Shown here one piece after another: positions 69 to 47,613 of a stretch of DNA of 64,000 bases. The translations under genes were made by a program, and so were the position numbers. The first letter of the stretch is position 1, and the number at the start of each line of letters is the position of its first letter. The notes below the pieces were generated by a model, which did not search any database, had not been told where the DNA came from, and worked only from the letters and a program-made list of their open reading frames with translations. The DNA is from Escherichia phage vB_EcoM_CUA3: the sequence record PP410321. The stretch is one strand, 5' to 3'.

Positions 69-296
69 TTATTTTCCTAAAGAAATACGGGTAGGTTTTT
101 TACCAAAGTATTCTTCATAAGAGCCATCTAAACGACCCGCTTTAGACCGACAATACGAATCGTACTTTTTGTAATAAGTCATCTCGGTATTATAACGCGG
201 GTGTCTATCGGCCATAATAATACTTAATGGCCAACCTTTGGCATAATCGCGAAGACCATTTATTTTACGAATGTATCTTTTCTTTAATTTTAGCAT
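69..296 (-). CDS. hypothetical small basic protein (75 aa)
   Basis: Minus-strand ORF; its ATG (294-296) overlaps the last codons of the upstream gene (tcATGcTAA); no recognisable motif. Confidence 0.4.
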   Translation of the reverse strand: MLKLKKRYIRKINGLRDYAKGWPLSIIMADRHPRYNTEMTYYKKYDSYCRSKAGRLDGSYEEYFGKKPTRISLGK

Positions 297-514
297 GAGC
301 TCGGGTACCAGATTTTACCATCAGAACGAGCAACGAAGGTACGTCCAGCTTCTTCACCATAACAAGAGCTGTTCAACCAGTCTTCGAGACGAACTTCACC
401 GTCATAATCATCGAGCTCAACACCGAAATCCTGAGCAGAAGCCATTTCTTTTACTTTCTTATACAGTGCAGCCAGTTCGAGTGCCGCTTTTTCTAATTCA
501 TTAATATCAGTCAT
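290..514 (-). CDS. small acidic protein, member 5 of tandem paralog array (C-terminus ...WYPSSC)
   Basis: ORF track; acidic N-terminal helix-like segment; C-terminal Trp-x-Pro-Ser-Ser-Cys-stop shared with the four upstream ORFs. Confidence 0.55.
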   Translation of the reverse strand: MTDINELEKAALELAALYKKVKEMASAQDFGVELDDYDGEVRLEDWLNSSCYGEEAGRTFVARSDGKIWYPSSC

Positions 515-526
515 TTTTTTNANNCC

Positions 527-736
527 TTAGCAAGACATAGAGGAGCTAAACCAGAAACCTTCACCTTCAGGAATACCGTAATCATCACGAACCCATTCGT
601 AATCATCATATTCCGGACTAGAAGCTGGAATATATTCTTCGCCACCGGCGTGGAAGTGCTGACCTGTTTCGTCAGCCACGGACTGGCCTTTACGTACTAA
701 TTCACGGATTTGTTTTTCAATTTCATCAATAGTCAT
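527..736 (-). CDS. small acidic protein, member 4 of tandem paralog array (C-terminus ...WFSSSMSC)
   Basis: ORF track; conserved tail; stop codon followed by TAAGG Shine-Dalgarno-like sequence for the next gene. Confidence 0.55.
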   Translation of the reverse strand: MTIDEIEKQIRELVRKGQSVADETGQHFHAGGEEYIPASSPEYDDYEWVRDDYGIPEGEGFWFSSSMSC

Positions 737-745
737 TTTATTACC

Positions 746-943
746 TTAGCATTCGTAAGAGGATGATACCCAAGAGGTACCACTAATTGTAATACAACCA
801 TTATAAAGCGTGATATGACGTTCCAGGTTACGTTGACCATCGATATAGATATCAGCTTCTTCGCGTTCTTCTTTACAAATCTGGATAACGTTTTCAATAG
901 CTGCGGCTGCAGTACGGATTGCACAATCTAATTCACGAGACAT
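746..943 (-). CDS. small acidic protein, member 3 of tandem paralog array (C-terminus ...WVSSSYEC)
   Basis: ORF track; conserved tail encoded with different synonymous codons than its paralogs. Confidence 0.55.
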   Translation of the reverse strand: MSRELDCAIRTAAAAIENVIQICKEEREEADIYIDGQRNLERHITLYNGCITISGTSWVSSSYEC

Positions 944-952
944 AATATTTCC

Positions 953-1234
953 TTAACATTCAGCAGAAGAGGACACCCAGCCGCCATTTTCTAGGTCGGT
1001 TGTGTAGTCATGAGTATTAACAATAGCCCATTCAGGATGACCATGTTCTTCCCAATGAGCAAGGTCAGCTTTCAAGGCGCCAGGAGAATAATAGTCACCG
1101 CCCATACCGCGAGCAGGGTATATATTAAAATGAGTCTCATATTTGTCTGCAATTTCCTCAGCACGACGAATAGCTTTATGGATGTCATTTACTGCGGCCA
1201 GNNNNTCTTTATTTTTACGGTAATCATTCATCAT
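953..1234 (-). CDS. small acidic protein, member 2 of tandem paralog array (C-terminus ...WVSSSAEC)
   Basis: ORF track; shares the internal EEIADKY...GGDYY segment with member 1; 4 N bases at 1202-1205. Confidence 0.55.
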   Translation of the reverse strand: MMNDYRKNKXXLAAVNDIHKAIRRAEEIADKYETHFNIYPARGMGGDYYSPGALKADLAHWEEHGHPEWAIVNTHDYTTDLENGGWVSSSAEC

Positions 1235-1243
1235 AGCGTTTCC

Positions 1244-1534
1244 TTAGCACATTGCCGAAGAGGAGACCCAAGCACCAACTGTAACGACACCGTTTTCAAC
1301 TTCGCCGCCGTTGTTTTCAATTTCATCTTTAAACCACTGGGAGCATTCATAACCGACCGGATAGTATGTACGTCCTGAACCATAATCGCCGGTACCGAAT
1401 TGGATACCATACTTATCGGCAATAGCTTCACATTTATGTTCGATGATATCTACTTTACCGAGTAGAGCATAGATAGCCTTTTCTGCAGATTTCTCGTCAT
1501 TGTATTCAGGGATTTCAATTTCAATTTTATTCAT
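1244..1534 (-). CDS. small acidic protein, member 1 of tandem paralog array (C-terminus ...WVSSSAMC)
   Basis: ORF track; AIADKYGIQFGTGDYGSG segment resembles member 2; conserved tail. Confidence 0.55.
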   Translation of the reverse strand: MNKIEIEIPEYNDEKSAEKAIYALLGKVDIIEHKCEAIADKYGIQFGTGDYGSGRTYYPVGYECSQWFKDEIENNGGEVENGVVTVGAWVSSSAMC

Positions 1535-2461: not shown

Positions 2462-3055
2462 TTACTTAAGTGAATTAATGTAGTCTTCGATATCAGCAGA
2501 AGTCGTATCCATTCCAACTTGTGGGCCTTTAAACGTTTCTACACGAAGCAGGGTATCTTCAATATCAATCTTAGTCAGTGCAGCGATTTCAACAACATCA
2601 TCGGCAGTAGCAATACCAAGGGCCGCCATATTACGAGTTTCACGAATGTACTCAAGCTTAACCGCTAGTTCCTGGCGAGAGTCATCAAGTTCCTTGACCT
2701 TAAGCTTAATTTCATTACGCATTTCAACATAATCATCGGCTTTCTTACGAAGTTGAGTAGCCGTACGACGATAAAGGAGGCCAAGTTTAGCATGCACCTG
2801 AACATCAGAGCCTTCTTTAATCAGTTTACGAATTTCTCGTTCTTTAGAACTAGCCAGTTGGTCCTTTTCGTTAGCGAGTTCACGGATACGTTTTTCTTCA
2901 TTCACAGACTTAACATGGGCAGTCTGGAGCTCAGTGATTTTATCAATCAGAGTAGAAGCAGCTTTGGTATACTGGTCTTCGATTGACAGGTTCTGAGTCA
3001 TTGCGGTACCCAGTTTAGAACGGATGAATTCAACGATTTTCTTTAAAGTGTTCAT
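2462..3055 (-). CDS. coiled-coil protein (about 198 aa), possibly PspA/IM30-like
   Basis: ORF 2462..3100; probable start ATG 3053-3055 preceded by AAGGAAA; charged heptad-like helical sequence throughout; PspA resemblance is impressionistic only. Confidence 0.45.
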
Positions 3056-3132
3056 AGTATTTCCTTCAGTCGGTTGATATTTTGTAATCCACGAGGACAT
3101 TATACCCTGTCCTCAGAGGTTTGTAAACATTT

Positions 3133-3531
3133 TTATTTCATTTTTGCGAGGCAGATTTCATTGGCTTCCCATTGAGCTTGCTTAATAATAGCTTTGGATA
3201 CAGGAACCCTTTGACCGTAAGTTTTTGATGTTGAGAGAACAATATGTTTGTTTGCTTCATTATGCCAGCCCCATGATTTTTCGCCATGAGTACCTTTAAC
3301 TACAGCTGACACCTCAACAGAGCAACCACCATCAGAAATCTTGGTTTCAACAATCCATTCATTTCTCTCAGCGGCTTCAATTTCCGATCTCCTTTTTTCT
3401 TCATACATGGCGGCCCAATCAGTTTTCGCCAGGTTGAAAGCAAGAGCTTTCTCTAATTCTTTGGCAGCTTTTTGTTGTTCGGGCGATAACGAATTATACA
3501 ACTCTTGCATTTCTTTATCTTCGATGTTCAT
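3133..3531 (-). CDS. hypothetical protein (about 133 aa)
   Basis: ORF 3133..3546 begins with a non-ATG codon in the track; first ATG at 3529-3531 is preceded by AAGGAG; conserved promoter/leader motif lies just upstream. Confidence 0.5.
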   Translation of the reverse strand: MNIEDKEMQELYNSLSPEQQKAAKELEKALAFNLAKTDWAAMYEEKRRSEIEAAERNEWIVETKISDGGCSVEVSAVVKGTHGEKSWGWHNEANKHIVLSTSKTYGQRVPVSKAIIKQAQWEANEICLAKMK

Positions 3532-3551
3532 TATGCTCTCCTTCACTCTGT

Positions 3552-3576
3552 TGTTTTGATAGGTCTATAGTATCAT
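3552..3576 (-). promoter_or_regulatory. conserved promoter/leader motif, copy 1 (minus strand reads ATGATACTATAGACCTATCAAAACA)
   Basis: One of three near-identical ~25-nt copies immediately upstream of minus-strand genes; contains an extended -10-like TGaTACTAT; upstream half masked by N. Confidence 0.4.
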
Positions 3577-4232
3577 NTTNNNNNNNNNNNNNNNNNNNNN
3601 NNNNNNNNNNNNNNNNNNNNNNNNNNNNNNNNNNNNNNNNNNNNNNNNNNNNNNNNNNNNNNNNNNNNNNNNNNNNNNNNNNNNNNNNNNNNNNNNNNNN
3701 NNNNNNNNNNNNNNNNNNNNNNNNNNNNNNNNNNNNNNNNNNNNNNNNNNNNNNNNNNNNNNNNNNNNNNNNNNNNNNNNNNNNNNNNNNNNNNNNNNNN
3801 NNNNNNNNNNNNNNNNNNNNNNNNNNNNNNNNNNNNNNNNNNNNNNNNNNNNNNNNNNNNNNNNNNNNNNNNNNNNNNNNNNNNNNNNNNNNNNNNNNNN
3901 NNNNNNNNNNNNNNNNNNNNNNNNNNNNNNNNNNNNNNNNNNNNNNNNNNNNNNNNNNNNNNNNNNNNNNNNNNNNNNNNNNNNNNNNNNNNNNNNNNNN
4001 NNNNNNNNNNNNNNNNNNNNNNNNNNNNNNNNNNNNNNNNNNNNNNNNNNNNNNNNNNNNNNNNNNNNNNNNNNNNNNNNNNNNNNNNNNNNNNNNNNNN
4101 NNNNNNNNNNNNNNNNNNNNNNNNNNNNNNNNNNNNNNNNNNNNNNNNNNNNNNNNNNNNNNNNNNNNNNNNNNNNNNNNNNNNNNNNNNNNNNNNNNNN
4201 NNNNNNNNNNNNNNNNNNNNNNNNNNNNNNNN

Positions 4233-4240
4233 TATTTATA
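4233..4240 (-). promoter_or_regulatory. T4-type late promoter TATAAATA (minus strand) reading into masked region
   Basis: Plus strand tatttata is the reverse complement of TATAAATA; the downstream gene is masked by N. Confidence 0.4.
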
Positions 4241-4269
4241 CAAAAAAGGCCCAACCTTTCGGAAGGGCC
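4241..4269 (-). terminator. intrinsic terminator hairpin ending the tRNA/small-RNA transcript
   Basis: ggccc aacc-tttc-ggaa gggcc stem-loop, followed on the minus strand by a T run (plus caaaaaa); identical 29-mer recurs at 51443-51471. Confidence 0.55.
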
Positions 4270-4271
4270 TT

Positions 4272-4439
4272 TAACCTAGGGTAACCTTGTCGGGGTTCCA
4301 CCTGCTAGGCAAGTGTTCNGTGCGCCGTTTCAGCTGTGAGATAAGGGACTTTAAGATGAACTCATGTACGCCTTAAAGTCGGGTCTTATTCAGGGAACAT
4401 CAGTCCGACGACTTACCGGTAGCGACCCGGTTTCTTGTT
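4272..4439 (-). ncRNA. candidate small stable RNA between tRNA-Arg and the terminator
   Basis: ~170 nt non-coding, GC-rich interval inside the tRNA transcription unit with no tRNA T-loop signature; T4 is known to carry small stable RNAs in its tRNA cluster. Confidence 0.25.
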
Positions 4440-4515
4440 TGGTCGAGACAGTAGGGATCGAACCTACGACCCAGGACTTAGAAGGTCCTTGCTCTTCCTT
4501 CTGAGCTATGCCTCG
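4440..4515 (-). tRNA. tRNA-Arg (anticodon UCU)
   Basis: Manual cloverleaf fold of the reverse complement: acceptor CGAGGCA/TGTCTCG, D-arm GCTC/GAGC, anticodon loop CTTCTAA, T-arm GTAGG-TTCGATC-CCTAC, encoded CCA; 76 nt. Confidence 0.8.
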
Positions 4516-4519
4516 TATT

Positions 4520-4594
4520 TGGCGGACATGCATGGATTCGAACCATGGACCAATTGATTAACAGTCAACTGCTCTACCACTGAGCTACACATCC
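4520..4594 (-). tRNA. tRNA-Asn (anticodon GUU)
   Basis: Manual fold: acceptor GGATGTG/CATGTCC, D-arm GCTC-AGTGGTA-GAGC, anticodon loop CTGTTAA, T-arm CATGG-TTCGAAT-CCATG, encoded CCA; 75 nt. Confidence 0.8.
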
Positions 4595-4598
4595 AAAT

Positions 4599-4672
4599 TG
4601 GTGGCCCTGGGTGGAATCGAACCACCATCCAGCGATTATGAGTCGCTCGCTTGACCGTCCAGCTACAGGGCC
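4599..4672 (-). tRNA. tRNA with CAU anticodon (Ile2/lysidine-type or Met)
   Basis: Manual fold: acceptor GGCCCTG/CAGGGCC, anticodon stem-loop AGCGA-CTCATAA-TCGCT (resembles the E. coli tRNA-Ile2 anticodon arm), T-arm GGTGG-TTCGATT-CCACC, encoded CCA; D-arm atypical. Confidence 0.65.
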
Positions 4673-5577
4673 TTAATTNNNNNNNNNNNNNNNNNNNNNN
4701 NNNNNNNNNNNNNNNNNNNNNNNNNNNNNNNNNNNNNNNNNNNNNNNNNNNNNNNNNNNNNNNNNNNNNNNNNNNNNNNNNNNNNNNNNNNNNNNNNNNN
4801 NNNNNNNNNNNNNNNNNNNNNNNNNNNNNNNNNNNNNNNNNNNNNNNNNNNNNNNNNNNNNNNNNNNNNNNNNNNNNNNNNNNNNNNNNNNNNNNNNNNN
4901 NNNNNNNNNNNNNNNNNNNNNNNNNNNNNNNNNNNNNNNNNNNNNNNNNNNNNNNNNNNNNNNNNNNNNNNNNNNNNNNNNNNNNNNNNNNNNTCTATTA
5001 TGAAAGGCTCTTTGAGTGAAGAACCTTTGGTAATAGAGGGTATTAATGATAGAGTAATAATATCATATAATTCTTAAAGCATATTAANNNNNNNNNNNNN
5101 NNNNNNNNNNNNNNNNNNNNNNNNNNNNNNNNNNNNNNNNNNNNNNNNNNNNNNNNNNNNNNNNNNNNNNNNNNNNNNNNNNNNNNNNNNNNNNNNNNNN
5201 NNNNNNNNNNNNNNNNNNNNNNNNNNNNNNNNNNNNNNNNNNNNNNNNNNNNNNNNNNNNNNNNNNNNNNNNNNNNNNNNNNNNNNNNNNNNNNNNNNNN
5301 NNNNNNNNNNNNNNNNNNNNNNNNNNNNNNNNNNNNNNNNNNNNNNNNNNNNNNNNNNNNNNNNNNNNNNNNNNNNNNNNNNNNNNNNNNNNNNNNNNNN
5401 NNNNNNNNNNNNNNNNNNNNNNNNNNNNNNNNNNNNNNNNNNNNNNNNNNNNNNNNNNNNNNNNNNNNNNNNNNNNNNNNNNNNNNNNNNNNNNNNNNNN
5501 NNNNNNNNNNNNNNNNNNNNNNNNNNNNNNNNNNNNNNNNNNNNNNNNNNNNNNNNNNCATATTAATATAGTCAAGT

Positions 5578-5837
5578 TTAATAGAAGCAATCTTTAAAGG
5601 ATTTTTAAAGATGTCGTATTCGACCAATCCATTTTCAGTTGCGGTATAAAAAGTAAAGTTGACAGAATTATAACGATGGCTGTTAACTTTGAGTTTAACA
5701 CCGCTTGAACTACGGCCAATATTAACCTGTTGAACATCAAGCACAGCATCTTTGCCGTAATTTCGAATCAACAACTCGGCTGCAACCTGATCGGATTTAT
5801 ATCCATTCTCTGGATTAGTAACCTTAACGTATAACAT
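5578..5837 (-). CDS. hypothetical protein, N-terminal part only (C-terminal part masked)
   Basis: Minus ORF starting ATG 5835-5837 (MLYVKVTNPENGYK...); reads into the N run 5088-5558. Confidence 0.4.
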
Positions 5838-6023
5838 TTAACCCTCGTCTACAATAGTGTGGGTATTGGCATTAACAATCTGCCACCAGTCAAAACGATT
5901 GGAACCATAACAAGGCTTATTCTCGTTTTCTTTAATGATATCGCGCAGTTCATCTTCAGNGAAGCCTTTNGCGATTAAGTCAGCATAACCGCCACGAGGG
6001 TAATAGTTATCACCCGCAAACAA
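5838..6023 (-). CDS. hypothetical protein, C-terminal fragment (N-terminal part masked)
   Basis: Open frame ending at stop 5838-5840 (...NRFDWWQIVNANTHTIVDEG); upstream portion lies in N run 6026-6238. Confidence 0.35.
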   Translation of the reverse strand: MFAGDNYYPRGGYADLIXKGFXEDELRDIIKENENKPCYGSNRFDWWQIVNANTHTIVDEG

Positions 6024-6238
6024 AANNNNNNNNNNNNNNNNNNNNNNNNNNNNNNNNNNNNNNNNNNNNNNNNNNNNNNNNNNNNNNNNNNNNNNNNNNN
6101 NNNNNNNNNNNNNNNNNNNNNNNNNNNNNNNNNNNNNNNNNNNNNNNNNNNNNNNNNNNNNNNNNNNNNNNNNNNNNNNNNNNNNNNNNNNNNNNNNNNN
6201 NNNNNNNNNNNNNNNNNNNNNNNNNNNNNNNNNNNNNN

Positions 6239-6424
6239 TTACTCACCTTTAGAGATTTTATCCATAACGAAAGAGATTGAACCAATTAAGAATGCCACTA
6301 CTAAAGAGATTGTATTCTCGGAAGTTGTAAGCAAATCCAACATGAATCCTGCAAACATACTAAAGCCAAAAGCAGTAACAGCGGCCAGTGCAGTAACATT
6401 TCTAATTAATTCGCAACGTTTCAT
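6239..6424 (-). CDS. small predicted membrane protein (61 aa)
   Basis: ORF track; two hydrophobic segments ([33 protein letters not shown]); conserved promoter/leader motif copy immediately upstream. Confidence 0.5.
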   Translation of the reverse strand: MKRCELIRNVTALAAVTAFGFSMFAGFMLDLLTTSENTISLVVAFLIGSISFVMDKISKGE

Positions 6425-6445
6425 TTTATTATCCNNNNNCTCATN

Positions 6446-6469
6446 TGTTTTGATAGGGCTATAGTATCA
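6446..6469 (-). promoter_or_regulatory. conserved promoter/leader motif, copy 2 (one substitution)
   Basis: tgttttgatagggctatagtatca; same element as 3552-3576 and 6812-6836. Confidence 0.4.
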
Positions 6470-6764
6470 NNNNNNNNNNNNNNNNNNNNNNNNNNNNNNN
6501 NNNNNNNNNNNNNNNNNNNNNNNNNNNNNNNNNNNNNNNNNNNNNNNNNNNNNNNNNNNNNNNNNNNNNNNNNNNNNNNNNNNNNNNNNNNNNNNNNNNN
6601 NNNNNNNNNNNNNNNNNNNNNNNNNNNNNNNNNNNNNNNNNNNNNNNNNNNNNNNNNNNNNNNNNNNNNNNNNNNNNNNNNNNNNNNNNNNNNNNNNNNN
6701 NNNNNNNNNNNNNNNNNNNNNNNNNNNNNNNNNNNNNNNNNNNNNNNNNNNNNNNNNNNNNNNN

Positions 6765-6786
6765 TAAATTCTTGATAAGTTTTCAT
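6765..6786 (-). CDS. internal protein (IP) gene, visible N-terminus only: MKTYQEF capsid-targeting sequence
   Basis: ATG at 6784-6786 followed by codons for K-T-Y-Q-E-F; I recall MKTYQEFIAE as the N-terminal capsid targeting sequence of T4 internal proteins; gene body masked by N (6470-6764). Confidence 0.55.
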
Positions 6787-6811
6787 TTTNNNGTTTCCAT
6801 TTGGTTNNNTT

Positions 6812-6836
6812 TGTTTTGATAGGTCTATAGTATCAT
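6812..6836 (-). promoter_or_regulatory. conserved promoter/leader motif, copy 3, upstream of the IP gene
   Basis: tgttttgataggtctatagtatcat, identical to copy 1. Confidence 0.4.
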
Positions 6837-7072
6837 NNNTATAGNCCTTGTAAANAACTTTTNNNNNNNNNNNNNNNNNNNNNNNNNNNNNNNNNNNNNN
6901 NNNNNNNNNNNNNNNNNNNNNNNNNNNNNNNNNNNNNNNNNNNNNNNNNNNNNNNNNNNNNNNNNNNNNNNNNNNNNNNNNNNNNNNNNNNNNNNNNNNN
7001 NNNNNNNNNNNNNNNNNNNNNNNNNNNNNNNNNNNNNNNNNNNNNNNNNNNNNNNNNNNNNNNNNNNNNNTT

Positions 7073-7780
<708 letters not shown>

Positions 7781-13368: not shown

Positions 13369-14014
13369 NNNNNNNNNNNNNNNNNNNNNNNNNNNNNNNN
13401 NNNNNNNNNNNNNNNNNNNNNNNNNNNNNNNNNNNNNNNNNNNNNNNNNNNNNNNNNNNNNNNNNNNNNNNNNNNNNNNNNNNNNNNNNNNNNNNNNNNN
13501 NNNNNNNNNNNNNNNNNNNNNNNNNNNNNNNNNNNNNNNNNNNNNNNNNNNNNNNNNNNNNNNNNNNNNNNNNNNNNNNNNNNNNNNNNNNNNNNNNNNN
13601 NNNNNNNNNNNNNNNNNNNNNNNNNNNNNNNNNNNNNNNNNNNNNNNNNNNNNNNNNNNNNNNNNNNNNNNNNNNNNNNNNNNNNNNNNNNNNNNNNNNN
13701 NNNNNNNNNNNNNNNNNNNNNNNNNNNNNNNNNNNNNNNNNNNNNNNNNNNNNNNNNNNNNNNNNNNNNNNNNNNNNNNNNNNNNNNNNNNNNNNNNNNN
13801 NNNNNNNNNNNNNNNNNNNNNNNNNNNNNNNNNNNNNNNNNNNNNNNNNNNNNNNNNNNNNNNNNNNNNNNNNNNNNNNNNNNNNNNNNNNNNNNNNNNN
13901 NNNNNNNNNNNNNNNNNNNNNNNNNNNNNNNNNNNNNNNNNNNNNNNNNNNNNNNNNNNNNNNNNNNNNNNNNNNNNNNNNNNNNNNNNNNNNNNNNNNN
14001 NNNNNNNNNCNATA

Positions 14015-37376: not shown

Positions 37377-37804
37377 TGTTCCTTATCCCTGATGATTACG
37401 AATTAACTCTAGAAAGTGTAGAGGCCAAAATTCCAGAAGCACAGGGACGTTTTGCTACTCTTTCTGAAGCCCTCGAGAAAAGCGATATAAATAATCTTGT
37501 AGAGAACATGATTGCTGATGGCGATATTGATACAGCTATTGCCATCGCCTCTTTGAATGAAAATATGGCTCTTAACGAATTTATTGTTAAGCACGTTTCT
37601 TCTAAAGGTGAGCTTACTCGTACTAAAGATATTAAAACCCGTCAACGCAACGCTTATCAAACGACCGGGTTGTCTAAAGCAAAACGCCGTCAGATTGCTC
37701 GCAAAGCATCTAAAACCAAACGTGCTAATCCGTCTACTCAAGTACGTGCTGAACGTAAGCGTAAGAAAGCTCGTTCTAAACGTAAAGCCTTTGGACTTAA
37801 CTAA
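37376..37804 (+). CDS. 68: gp68 prohead core protein
   Basis: 142 aa (T4 gp68 141); synteny. Confidence 0.85.
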
Positions 37805-38439
37805 TGAAACCTGAATTGCTCATCGAACATTGGGGACAACCAGGTGAAATTATCGATGGGGTTCCAATGTTGGAATCTCATGATGGAAAAGATTCTGGAC
37901 TTGCCCCAGGCCTTTATATAGAAGGCATATTCATGCAAGCCGAAGTGGTTAACCGTAATAAACGCCTTTATCCAAAACCTATTTTGGAAAAAGCTGTTGC
38001 CGATTATATGGCAGAACAGGTTGCTACTAAACAAGCTTTAGGAGAATTAAATCATCCGCCTCGTGCTAACGTTGACCCTATGCAAGCCGCTATTATTATT
38101 GAAGATATGTGGTGGAAAGGTAATGACGTTTATGGACGTGCTCGTATTATTGAAGGCGACCATGGTCCTGGTGATAAACTAGCTGCTAATATTAGAGCCG
38201 GTTGGGTACCTGGTGTTAGTTCTCGTGGTCTAGGTTCTTTAACTGAAACCAACAAAGGATATAAGCGTGTAAACGAAGGTTATAAATTAACCGTCGGTGT
38301 TGATGCAGTATGGGGACCATCTGCTCCTGATGCTTATGTAACTCCTAAACAAATTACAGAATCACAAACGGTAGATACCGATACCAGTGCCGATGACGCC
38401 TTTATGGCTCTCGCAGAGGCCATGAAAAAAGCGTTATAA
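37804..38439 (+). CDS. 21: gp21 prohead core scaffold protein and protease
   Basis: 211 aa; near-identical to T4 gp21 as recalled (…LIEHWGQPGEIIDGVPMLESHDGKD…). Confidence 0.97.
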   Translation: MKPELLIEHWGQPGEIIDGVPMLESHDGKDSGLAPGLYIEGIFMQAEVVNRNKRLYPKPILEKAVADYMAEQVATKQALGELNHPPRANVDPMQAAIIIEDMWWKGNDVYGRARIIEGDHGPGDKLAANIRAGWVPGVSSRGLGSLTETNKGYKRVNEGYKLTVGVDAVWGPSAPDAYVTPKQITESQTVDTDTSADDAFMALAEAMKKAL

Positions 38440-38469: not shown

Positions 38470-39285
38470 ATGCTTAAAGAACAACTGATTGCTGAAGCAC
38501 AGAATATTGATGCTTCCGTTGCTCTTGACAGTATTTTCGAATCAGTTAATATTTCTCCGGAAGCAAAAGAAACTTTCGGCACTGTATTCGAAGCTACCGT
38601 CAAGCAACACGCCGTTAAACTGGCTGAATCTCACATCGCTAAAATCGCTGAAAAAGCGGAAGAAGAAGTTGAGAAAAATAAAGAAGAAGCTGAAGAAAAA
38701 GCCGATAAGAAAATCCAAGAAGCTGCCGGTCGTTTCCTTGACCACGTCGCTAAAGAATGGATGGCTGAAAACCAGCTGGCTGTTGATAAAGGTATTAAAG
38801 CCGAACTGTTCGAATCCATGTTGATGGGTATGAAAGAACTGTTTGTTGAACACAACGTGGTTGTTCCAGAAGAAGCAGTAGACGTTGTCGCTGAAATGGA
38901 AGAAGAACTTCAAGAGCAGAAAGATGAAACCGCTCGTCTGTTCGAAGAAGTTGGTAAGCGCGATGCGTATATTAATTACGTACAGCGTGAAGTTGCGTTG
39001 ACTGAAGCAACTAAAGACCTGACTGAATCTCAGAAAGAAAAAGTTAGTTCTCTGGTAGAAGGCATGGATTATTCCGATGCATTTGGTAAAAAAATTGGCG
39101 CTATCGTTGAAATGGTTAAAGGCCAGACCGACGTTGAAAAACCAATCACCGAAGCCGCTATAAATAAAACTGAAGACGATGCTGCAGCACTGAATTATAT
39201 TTCGGAAGCAGTTGAAGAAAAAGGCGCTAAGCCTACCCTGTCCTTCGCGGACCTGTCTGCAATCGCAGCATCACGAATTTCTTAA
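38470..39285 (+). CDS. 22: gp22 prohead core scaffold protein
   Basis: 271 aa acidic helical protein (T4 gp22 269); synteny. Confidence 0.93.
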   Translation: MLKEQLIAEAQNIDASVALDSIFESVNISPEAKETFGTVFEATVKQHAVKLAESHIAKIAEKAEEEVEKNKEEAEEKADKKIQEAAGRFLDHVAKEWMAENQLAVDKGIKAELFESMLMGMKELFVEHNVVVPEEAVDVVAEMEEELQEQKDETARLFEEVGKRDAYINYVQREVALTEATKDLTESQKEKVSSLVEGMDYSDAFGKKIGAIVEMVKGQTDVEKPITEAAINKTEDDAAALNYISEAVEEKGAKPTLSFADLSAIAASRIS

Positions 39286-40910: not shown

Positions 40911-41247
40911 CTGTACNNNNNNNNNNNNNNNNNNNNNNNNNNNNNNNNNNNNNNNNNNNNNNNNNNNNNNNNNNNNNNNNNNNNNNNNNNNNNNNNNNNN
41001 NNNNNNNNNNNNNNNNNNNNNNNNNNNNNNNNNNNNNNNNNNNNNNNNNNNNNNNNNNNNNNNNNNNNNNNNNNNNNNNNNNNNNNNNNNNNNNNNNNNN
41101 NNNNNNNNNNNNNNNNNNNNNNNNNNNNNNNNNNNNNNNNNNNNNNNNNNNNNNNNNNNNNNNNNNNNNNNNNNNNNNNNNNNNNNNNNNNNNNNNNNNN
41201 NNNNNNNNNNNNNNNNNNNNNNNNNNNNNNNNNNNNNNNNNNACCTT

Positions 41248-45580: not shown

Positions 45581-47613
45581 AACAATTCTCTTGTNNNNNN
45601 NNNNNNNNNNNNNNNNNNNNNNNNNNNNNNNNNNNNNNNNNNNNNNNNNNNNNNNNNNNNNNNNNNNNNNNNNNNNNNNNNNNNNNNNNNNNNNNNNNNN
45701 NNNNNNNNNNNNNNNNNNNNNNNNNNNNNNNNNNNNNNNNNNNNNNNNNNNNNNNNNNNNNNNNNNNNNNNNNNNNNNNNNNNNNNNNNNNNNNNNNNNN
45801 NNNNNNNNNNNNNNNNNNNNNNNNNNNNNNNNNNNNNNNNNNNNNNNNNNNNNNNNNNNNNNNNNNNNNNNNNNNNNNNNNNNNNNNNNNNNNNNNNNNN
45901 NNNNNNNNNNNNNNNNNNNNNNNNNNNNNNNNNNNNNNNNNNNNNNNNNNNNNNNNNNNNNNNNNNNNNNNNNNNNNNNNNNNNNNNNNNNNNNNNNNNN
46001 NNNNNNNNNNNNNNNNNNNNNNNNNNNNNNNNNNNNNNNNNNNNNNNNNNNNNNNNNNNNNNNNNNNNNNNNNNNNNNNNNNNNNNNNNNNNNNNNNNNN
46101 NNNNNNNNNNNNNNNNNNNNNNNNNNNNNNNNNNNNNNNNNNNNNNNNNNNNNNNNNNNNNNNNNNNNNNNNNNNNNNNNNNNNNNNNNNNNNNNNNNNN
46201 NNNNNNNNNNNNNNNNNNNNNNNNNNNNNNNNNNNNNNNNNNNNNNNNNNNNNNNNNNNNNNNNNNNNNNNNNNNNNNNNNNNNNNNNNNNNNNNNNNNN
46301 NNNNNNNNNNNNNNNNNNNNNNNNNNNNNNNNNNNNNNNNNNNNNNNNNNNNNNNNNNNNNNNNNNNNNNNNNNNNNNNNNNNNNNNNNNNNNNNNNNNN
46401 NNNNNNNNNNNNNNNNNNNNNNNNNNNNNNNNNNNNNNNNNNNNNNNNNNNNNNNNNNNNNNNNNNNNNNNNNNNNNNNNNNNNNNNNNNNNNNNNNNNN
46501 NNNNNNNNNNNNNNNNNNNNNNNNNNNNNNNNNNNNNNNNNNNNNNNNNNNNNNNNNNNNNNNNNNNNNNNNNNNNNNNNNNNNNNNNNNNNNNNNNNNN
46601 NNNNNNNNNNNNNNNNNNNNNNNNNNNNNNNNNNNNNNNNNNNNNNNNNNNNNNNNNNNNNNNNNNNNNNNNNNNNNNNNNNNNNNNNNNNNNNNNNNNN
46701 NNNNNNNNNNNNNNNNNNNNNNNNNNNNNNNNNNNNNNNNNNNNNNNNNNNNNNNNNNNNNNNNNNNNNNNNNNNNNNNNNNNNNNNNNNNNNNNNNNNN
46801 NNNNNNNNNNNNNNNNNNNNNNNNNNNNNNNNNNNNNNNNNNNNNNNNNNNNNNNNNNNNNNNNNNNNNNNNNNNNNNNNNNNNNNNNNNNNNNNNNNNN
46901 NNNNNNNNNNNNNNNNNNNNNNNNNNNNNNNNNNNNNNNNNNNNNNNNNNNNNNNNNNNNNNNNNNNNNNNNNNNNNNNNNNNNNNNNNNNNNNNNNNNN
47001 NNNNNNNNNNNNNNNNNNNNNNNNNNNNNNNNNNNNNNNNNNNNNNNNNNNNNNNNNNNNNNNNNNNNNNNNNNNNNNNNNNNNNNNNNNNNNNNNNNNN
47101 NNNNNNNNNNNNNNNNNNNNNNNNNNNNNNNNNNNNNNNNNNNNNNNNNNNNNNNNNNNNNNNNNNNNNNNNNNNNNNNNNNNNNNNNNNNNNNNNNNNN
47201 NNNNNNNNNNNNNNNNNNNNNNNNNNNNNNNNNNNNNNNNNNNNNNNNNNNNNNNNNNNNNNNNNNNNNNNNNNNNNNNNNNNNNNNNNNNNNNNNNNNN
47301 NNNNNNNNNNNNNNNNNNNNNNNNNNNNNNNNNNNNNNNNNNNNNNNNNNNNNNNNNNNNNNNNNNNNNNNNNNNNNNNNNNNNNNNNNNNNNNNNNNNN
47401 NNNNNNNNNNNNNNNNNNNNNNNNNNNNNNNNNNNNNNNNNNNNNNNNNNNNNNNNNNNNNNNNNNNNNNNNNNNNNNNNNNNNNNNNNNNNNNNNNNNN
47501 NNNNNNNNNNNNNNNNNNNNNNNNNNNNNNNNNNNNNNNNNNNNNNNNNNNNNNNNNNNNNNNNNNNNNNNNNNNNNNNNNNNNNNNNNNNNNNNNNNNN
47601 NNNNNNNNNNNNN

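Follow-up and report, generated by a model that had tools for sequence, protein, structure and literature searches.

A capsid-targeting leader at the ipI locus of a JS98-like Dhakavirus very probably marks an internal-protein gene with a masked body

The window analysed here, the whole 64,000-nt stretch of Escherichia phage vB_EcoM_CUA3 (PP410321), comes from a JS98-like T4-type phage of the genus Dhakavirus, with structural genes about 97% identical to those of phages dhabil, dhaeg and CLB_P2 and about 96% identical to those of JS98 and JS10. On the minus strand the gene order is gp1 dNMP kinase (8542-7781), 57A, 57B, a gene represented by its leader, trna.4, trna.3, trna.2 and the tRNAs, of which there are three (4672-4440). 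The order in T4 is identical, with ipI occupying the 57B-trna.4 interval, and the leader gene of the window lies at this internal-protein (IP) locus, one of two, the other being e-denV. Besides 57B and Trna.4, which form the borders of the locus (Table 1), Trna.3 and Trna.2 are also recognizable by comparison with T4, at 82% and 52% identity. The 151-aa JS10 orthologue of 57B, which has the same coordinates as the window ORF, matches PF23474 with E = 9e-59. We note that 57B/acb1 abuts the IP cassettes, and that the two together make up a small counter-defence island. The ORFs at 5578-6023, which the initial annotation had taken as possible members of the locus, turned out to be parts of two orthologues, the C-terminal part in the case of trna.3 and the N-terminal part in that of trna.2; these are conserved non-IP genes with no leader, and they were dropped as internal-protein candidates.

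Table 1. Features of the internal-protein locus and of the head-assembly genes, in window positions
Feature	Position	Strand	Basis
57B, Acb1 anti-CBASS phosphodiesterase, upstream locus border	7073..7528	-	86% identity to T4 57B
N-run at the place of a 69-aa leader-bearing ORF of JS10 (MKSYKEFLTEA...)	6863..7070	-	alignment to JS10 and relatives
Promoter of sigma-70/T4-early type, TTTACA-16 nt-TACTAT with TG extension	6827..6854	-	promoter-like sequence match
10-bp inverted repeat AGGNCTATAN / CTATAGACCT inside the promoter, PeSL-like stem-loop	6821..6848	-	100% complementary (JS10 repeat I3)
5' UTR with GGAAAC ribosome-binding element	6787..6820	-	comparison with relatives
ATG, seven leader codons in all, and base 1 of codon 8 of the putative internal-protein gene	6765..6786	-	unique site; 21/22 nt as in T4 ipII/ipIII
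N-run in place of the internal-protein body or bodies and of the -35/spacer of the next promoter	6470..6764	-	JS10 register
Second promoter copy, visible 3' part (-10 and 3' hairpin arm), with trna.4 UTR	6425..6469	-	repeat comparison
trna.4 orthologue, 61-aa membrane protein, downstream locus border	6239..6424	-	70% identity to T4 Trna.4; PF26870
gp21 prohead protease, expected to cleave off the leader	37804..38439	+	Peptidase_S77, E = 1e-103
gp22 scaffolding core protein, the expected target structure of the leader	38470..39285	+	T4_CASP, E = 2e-90

The readable part of the leader gene is short. Positions 6786..6766 of the minus strand read ATGAAAACTTATCAAGAATTT, that is ATG AAA ACT TAT CAA GAA TTT, which translates as MKTYQEF; base 6765, an A, opens codon 8, and 6764..6470 is entirely N. 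The initial annotation had read the same peptide from these 22 nt, leaving the strand unstated, and had named MKTYQEFIAE as the T4 leader, which is right for ipII and ipIII when T4 is translated directly; T4 ipI starts MKTFKEF...STITE/A (here and below the slash marks the cleavage point). MKTYQEF has the capsid-targeting leader pattern M-K-(T/S)-(Y/F)-x-E-F and is identical to residues 1-7 of T4 IPII and IPIII, and its DNA differs from the first 21 nt of T4 ipII/ipIII, ATGAAAACATATCAAGAATTT, by one synonymous base. Ahead of the ATG, at 6798-6793, is the Shine-Dalgarno-like GGAAAC, and the NNN in the same 5' UTR falls at the positions of indels in relatives relative to JS10. With just 22 nt visible, might the leader match be chance or non-coding similarity? 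The 21-mer has a single site in the 64 kb at up to three mismatches, where shuffles give 0.01 expected by chance even at that tolerance; the site has the exact syntenic position of ipI and is preceded by a promoter and a ribosome-binding element, and in all relatives IP genes have a 5' flank homologous to the one seen here. We regard the probability of a chance match as negligible.

The promoter ahead of the leader contains an inverted repeat, and the hairpin so formed has a DNA fold z of -5.7, other copies having z = -2.5 to -4.3. The T4 ipI promoter also carries a hairpin, with a stem of different sequence. JS10 has two 63-nt copies of the promoter, 366 nt apart (JS10 repeat D1), and in the window the second copy with the adjoining UTR supplies the block of homology on the downstream side of the cassette. 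Early-promoter copies bracket each cassette or cassette group in the relatives sampled, which are described below. An Rfam scan of 4233-7100 returned nothing beyond the three tRNAs. The bracketing of cassettes by promoter and hairpin agrees with the arrangement of Repoila et al. 1994, as cited in PMC2839356; the latter paper terms the elements flanking both IP loci PeSL-like and considers that they may drive shuffling within them. As an observation in its own right, an early promoter that contains a hairpin and has a conserved CTATCAAAACAA leader recurs on the minus strand at 6821-6857, 6440-6469 and about 3550-3577; the repeated copies bracket variable cassettes, and their stems vary among copies and from that of T4 with the pairing kept.

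The genes for gp21 and gp22 are both present in the window, and the window's gp23 and gp24 retain the LTE/A and LRE/S processing sites. Relatives have genes annotated 'internal head protein', or Ip8 and Ip9, with an MKTYQEF-type leader at 57B-trna.4. Given the unique leader, the synteny with ipI, the early promoter with its hairpin, the presence of gp21 and gp22, and the cassettes in relatives that share the leader, we think it very probable that a T4-type IP gene begins with the visible bases and occupies the ipI locus (57B/acb1-ip-trna.4) of a JS98-like Dhakavirus. The initial annotation had proposed an internal-protein gene here, and the leader, the ipI slot and the annotated genes of relatives support that proposal. 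The kind is already known: this is a textbook hypervariable IP locus, and several relatives are already annotated accordingly.

What do the runs of N stand for? In every alignment the window coordinate plus 64000 is the JS10 coordinate (EU863409 64001-128000), and over 52,179 visible bases the position-wise identity to JS10 is 94.1% with zero indels; a shift of 1 nt against JS10 cuts the identity to 29%. True relatives at comparable divergence do have indels in the same intergenic regions. N-runs 4679-4993 and 5088-5558 coincide to the base with JS10 blocks that are unaligned in dhabil and in locus L008 of our sample, N-run 6026-6238 agrees within 5 nt with a JS10 block unaligned in relatives, and N-run 6863-7070 agrees within 1 nt with the block (6864-7070) missing in phages ABTNLsp5 and FB. 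Elsewhere, N-run 13369-14009 covers JS10 mobE, N-runs 40917-41242 (JS10_0170) and 45595-47613 (tail-fibre-like gene and hoc) cover JS10-specific or variable genes, further N-runs cover gp10-12/wac segments, and single and triple Ns sit at sites of small indels in relatives relative to JS10. Because the register is that of JS10 with zero indels, and because the N-runs fall on unaligned JS10 blocks, the window looks like a reference-projected consensus, that is, another Dhakavirus projected onto JS10 with N where nothing aligned, rather than an independent assembly.

Several consequences bear on how the locus is to be read. The N-runs mark where the real phage departs most from JS10, and lengths across them are uninformative; where a sequence has been projected, a run of N may stand for a deletion as well. 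The effector carried here is thus unreadable, as the initial annotation had held for the masked body, since the body is all N and the N-run does not keep the real length. If the consensus was made by read mapping, the 98 nt visible here may combine several paralogous promoter/leader copies, and such merging would weaken clues taken from individual bases. Beside the locus, the N-run within 57A (7584-7711, -) falls on a stretch of PEASDEE repeats that is expanded by 30 nt in JS10 compared with JS98 and dhabil; the tail-fibre chaperone has here an acidic repeat of variable length. Elsewhere in the window, 290-1534 (-) holds five tandem small ORFs (65-96 aa) that are evidently paralogous and share a W/F-x-SSS-x-x-C-type C-terminal motif (GKIWYPSSC, GFWFSSSMSC, TSWVSSSYEC, GGWVSSSAEC and GAWVSSSAMC); four of the five are annotated in JS10 only as hypothetical, and the fifth has no annotation there.

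Which protein bodies follow this leader in related phages? Our sample comprised about 30 Dhakavirus loci, some taken from phages in GenBank and others from metagenome and Logan contigs on which a protein identical to 57B or trna.4 of the window is encoded; the loci were scanned for the leader, and the mature parts were clustered. One leader heads eight unrelated bodies in these loci, seven of which occur at 57B-trna.4. Type A (69 aa, MKSYKEFLTE/A) has a start that overlaps the 57B stop. Type B (73-74 aa, MKTYQEFITE/A) is annotated Ip8, and type C (86-90 aa, MKTYQEFIAE/S) is annotated Ip9. Type D (91-92 aa, MKTYQEFSK...ITE/A) matches Pfam IPI_T4 with E = 1e-26 and PDB 2JUB with E = 8e-23. Type E (97 aa, MKTYQEFIKE/S) was found only in JS98, JS10, MN04 and two Logan contigs. 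Three further types are left unnamed: one of 84 aa (MKTYSEFS...LTE/S), one of 110 aa (MNIKTYNEFLAE/S), and one of 205-207 aa (MKTYNEFLNE/S) that lies beyond the tRNAs behind a late promoter.

The leader is near-identical in DNA among these cassettes, and the 22 nt of the window are found unchanged before most type B, C, D and E copies. All eight families have a cleavage site of (L/I)xE or similar form at residues 8-18, and nearly every cassette variant of the relatives has (L/I)xE within about 10-20 residues of the start, examples being IKE/S, ITE/A, IAE/S and, at residue 18, ITE/A. A locus holds one to four cassettes in varying combinations, and every sampled locus that spans the full 57B-trna.4 interval has at least one intact leader-bearing ORF. 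The UTR sequence was tried as a marker of cassette type and is not diagnostic, UTR variants being shuffled among types. Only type D has a Pfam family; the other seven of the eight leader-bearing body families of Dhakaviruses have none, and the records and libraries that we searched give no functional annotation for those seven. According to work cited in PMC2839356, the known IP variants number more than 30.

Separately, within window positions 3580-4240 on the minus strand, a 653-nt N-run comes after a T4 late promoter, TATAAATA (4240-4233). The slot is taken in dhabil-like relatives by the 205-207-aa protein (MKTYNEFLNES...), with a proline/alanine/lysine-rich middle, and in JS10 by a DUF7338 membrane protein of 184 aa. 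An additional and larger internal protein may therefore be encoded at this slot in the source phage.

At the upstream end of the locus, JS10, JS98 and most Dhakaviruses have the conserved 69-aa ORF of type A, with a GTG or ATG start overlapping the 57B/acb1 stop (in JS10, 3025-3234 of locus L001). The overlap in the window reads GTAA, not GTGA, which leaves no start, and the remainder is N. Phages ABTNLsp5 and FB, which are without the 69-aa ORF, share with the window the junction TTAAAGTAAAAAAG at the end of 57B, and the window's 57B-end junction, GATTTAAAGTAAAA..., resembles theirs. To judge from these junctions, the 69-aa ORF is probably absent from the source phage. Neither the 69-aa nor the 97-aa leader-bearing ORF is annotated in the JS98 and JS10 GenBank records. 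We note also that in many relatives the 69-aa ORF overlaps the acb1 stop, so that its start may depend on acb1 translation.

Does JS10 tell us what follows the leader? In the JS10 reference the exact coordinates of the leader gene are held by the 97-aa protein of type E (MKTYQEFIKE/STDLY..., phrog_27873), and the masked body might be that protein if the masking were arbitrary. The spacings of the window equal those of JS10 (660 nt from the end of 57B to the trna.4 ATG, 317 nt from the leader ATG to the next -10, and a UTR of 40 nt) and are unlike those of other cassette types. Since the whole window is in JS10 coordinates, however, equal lengths are forced, and the agreement is an artefact; the exact-length argument for the 97-aa protein was dropped once the projection was recognized. 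Further, the N-runs are JS10 blocks that relatives lack, and the N-run here marks a failure of alignment to exactly the 97-aa gene, the mature domain of which reads MKTYQEFIKESTDLYSINK... in JS10. A gene that is 99-100% conserved would have aligned and been visible, so the masked body is probably not it. The visible UTR has AACCAAATGGAAAC, which accompanies types B, C and D, in place of the AACCTAACGGAAAC of 5/5 type-E loci, and the source also seems to be without JS10's 69-aa ORF, JS10_0133, JS10_0134 and mobE. On these comparisons the 97-aa protein of JS10 is most likely not what the N-run at 6470-6764 conceals, and we consider arbitrary masking of a JS10-type gene highly improbable.

Nor do we give much weight to a deletion behind the capsid-targeting sequence (CTS) that would have left a leader remnant and no functional internal-protein gene. 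An N-run can mean a deletion, and those at 6863-7070 and 13369-14009 probably do; every sampled locus spanning 57B-trna.4 nevertheless keeps at least one intact leader-bearing ORF, and in the window the promoter, UTR, ribosome-binding site and ATG are all intact, which makes a bare remnant quite implausible. Given that the window is a projection, we regard the JS10-type and remnant readings even jointly as improbable.

Given the projection, an IPI-family homologue (IPI_T4, PF11634) is one tentative candidate for the masked body. The mask pattern of the window is most like that of dhabil (Jaccard 0.83), and dhabil, dhaeg and CLB_P2, which at about 97% identity are the closest relatives overall, carry a 92-aa IPI homologue here (MKTYQEFSK...ITE/A). 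The visible sequence ends after the A of codon 8, just where AGT (Ser) leaves the ATC of JS10, and this fits the AGT of type D better than the ATT or ATC of types B, C and E. Unlike those relatives, the source phage appears to be without the 69-aa ORF, and its downstream promoter differs from theirs. PDB 2JUB, matched by type D, is IPI*, the inhibitor of GmrSD of E. coli CT596.

Ip8 (RB15-type, 73-74 aa) and/or Ip9 (VR7-type, 86-90 aa) is an equally tentative choice. These proteins have the same leader DNA at the same locus, and the five sampled phages that are without type A and have the window's short 57B-to-promoter spacing all have Ip8 and/or Ip9; Ip9 is also present, together with an IPI homologue, in a sixth phage that lacks type A (locus L026). 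Their ATT or ATC at codon 8, on the other hand, would leave one or two more visible bases than the window has. Neither Ip8 nor Ip9 has a known function, a Pfam family or a solved structure.

In two features the window matches none of the approximately 30 relatives: the -35/spacer of its downstream promoter does not align, and its trna.4 UTR reads GGATAATAAAATG, so that the local architecture is not fully predictable from relatives. Scanned by exact pattern for the leader with its window-specific UTR, IMG/VR and the JGI metagenome contigs each gave 0 hits, and a look-up of contigs by the exact 57B and trna.4 proteins of the window led to 17 places, none with the window's junctions. A cassette outside our sample is unlikely, on the projection reading. 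The failure to align with JS10, the unmatched -35/spacer and trna.4 UTR, and the lack of an identical flank in IMG/VR and JGI would all be consistent with a hidden cassette outside the eight sampled mature-domain families, which would then be a new injected counter-defence effector; we hold this to be a rather unlikely outcome.

The 97-aa protein deserves description as a member of the leader-bearing group in its own right. Its ORF lies at 3315-3608 of the JS10 locus (L001) and 1576-1869 of the JS98 locus (L003), and the RefSeq matches show no feature over it. The gene is 99-100% identical wherever found. The protein forms one 90%-identity cluster among 5.8 billion proteins, and among 1.84 billion representatives it has five matches, only one of which, of 99 aa, looks like a true homologue. 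It matches only phrog_27873, whose function is unassigned; no Pfam family was found for it, and its profile gave no match to PDB sequences. The single-sequence AlphaFold model is poor (pLDDT 58.7), and a Foldseek search of this model against the PDB gave nothing below E = 0.02, with IPI* not among the matches listed. In an hhalign comparison with the IPI family only the 16-residue leader aligns, the mature domain sharing nothing with IPI. Leader-bearing homologues at 33-38% identity are present at the e-denV IP locus of Edwardsiella phage PEi20 and Enterobacter phage CC31, and a leaderless homologue adjoins motA in Yersinia phage MHG19. The distribution of these homologues supports the 97-aa protein as a genuine IP family.

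What might the protein behind the window's leader do? The anti-restriction principle of internal proteins and the hypervariability of the locus have been known since 1994. By analogy with T4 biology, the leader (CTS) would dock the protein into the prohead scaffolding core, gp21 would cut the leader off after an (L/I)-x-E site, and hundreds of copies of the small mature protein would stay in the head and be injected with the DNA. The CTS is described as directing proteins to the core, and gp21 as removing it (PMC5694885), and the T-even internal proteins are diverse defence proteins that have the CTS alone in common (PMC3012670). Once injected, the protein may block a specific host defence. 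Its most likely target would be a type IV (GmrSD-like) nuclease acting on DNA with modified cytosine, since all three T4 internal proteins act in this way, Ip1, Ip2 and Ip3 each inhibiting a different GmrSD type IV restriction enzyme (PMC12373910), and since JS98-type phages make hmC DNA, having gene 42 (hmC) and no glucosyltransferases (PMC2993671). Cassettes would be exchanged among phages by homologous recombination in the flanks, with the promoter-hairpin and leader as the upstream block and the next promoter as the downstream one. Internal proteins enter the host ahead of any phage gene expression, and the IP cassette helps set host range, which is relevant to choosing therapeutic coliphages. 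The window adds no new effector to those known, the effector being absent from the data.

The closest known systems are the internal proteins of T4, encoded by ipI between 57B and trna.4 and by ipII and ipIII between e and denV. The leader gene of the window resembles them in its MKTYQEF, as in IPII and IPIII, in its position in the ipI slot, in its early promoter with hairpin, and in the presence of gp21 and gp22 in the same window; it differs in that the phage is a Dhakavirus of the JS98 group, with hmC DNA and no glucosyltransferases. A second comparison is with the PeSL cassettes of RB49/phi1-type phages, where likewise an accessory gene lies between repeated recombination elements made of an early promoter and a hairpin, and the cassettes are shuffled as modules. 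The elements of the IP locus are analogues of these, not homologues: in the IP locus an AT-rich hairpin is contained within the promoter itself, and the conserved coding leader serves as a second homology block (PMC2839356).
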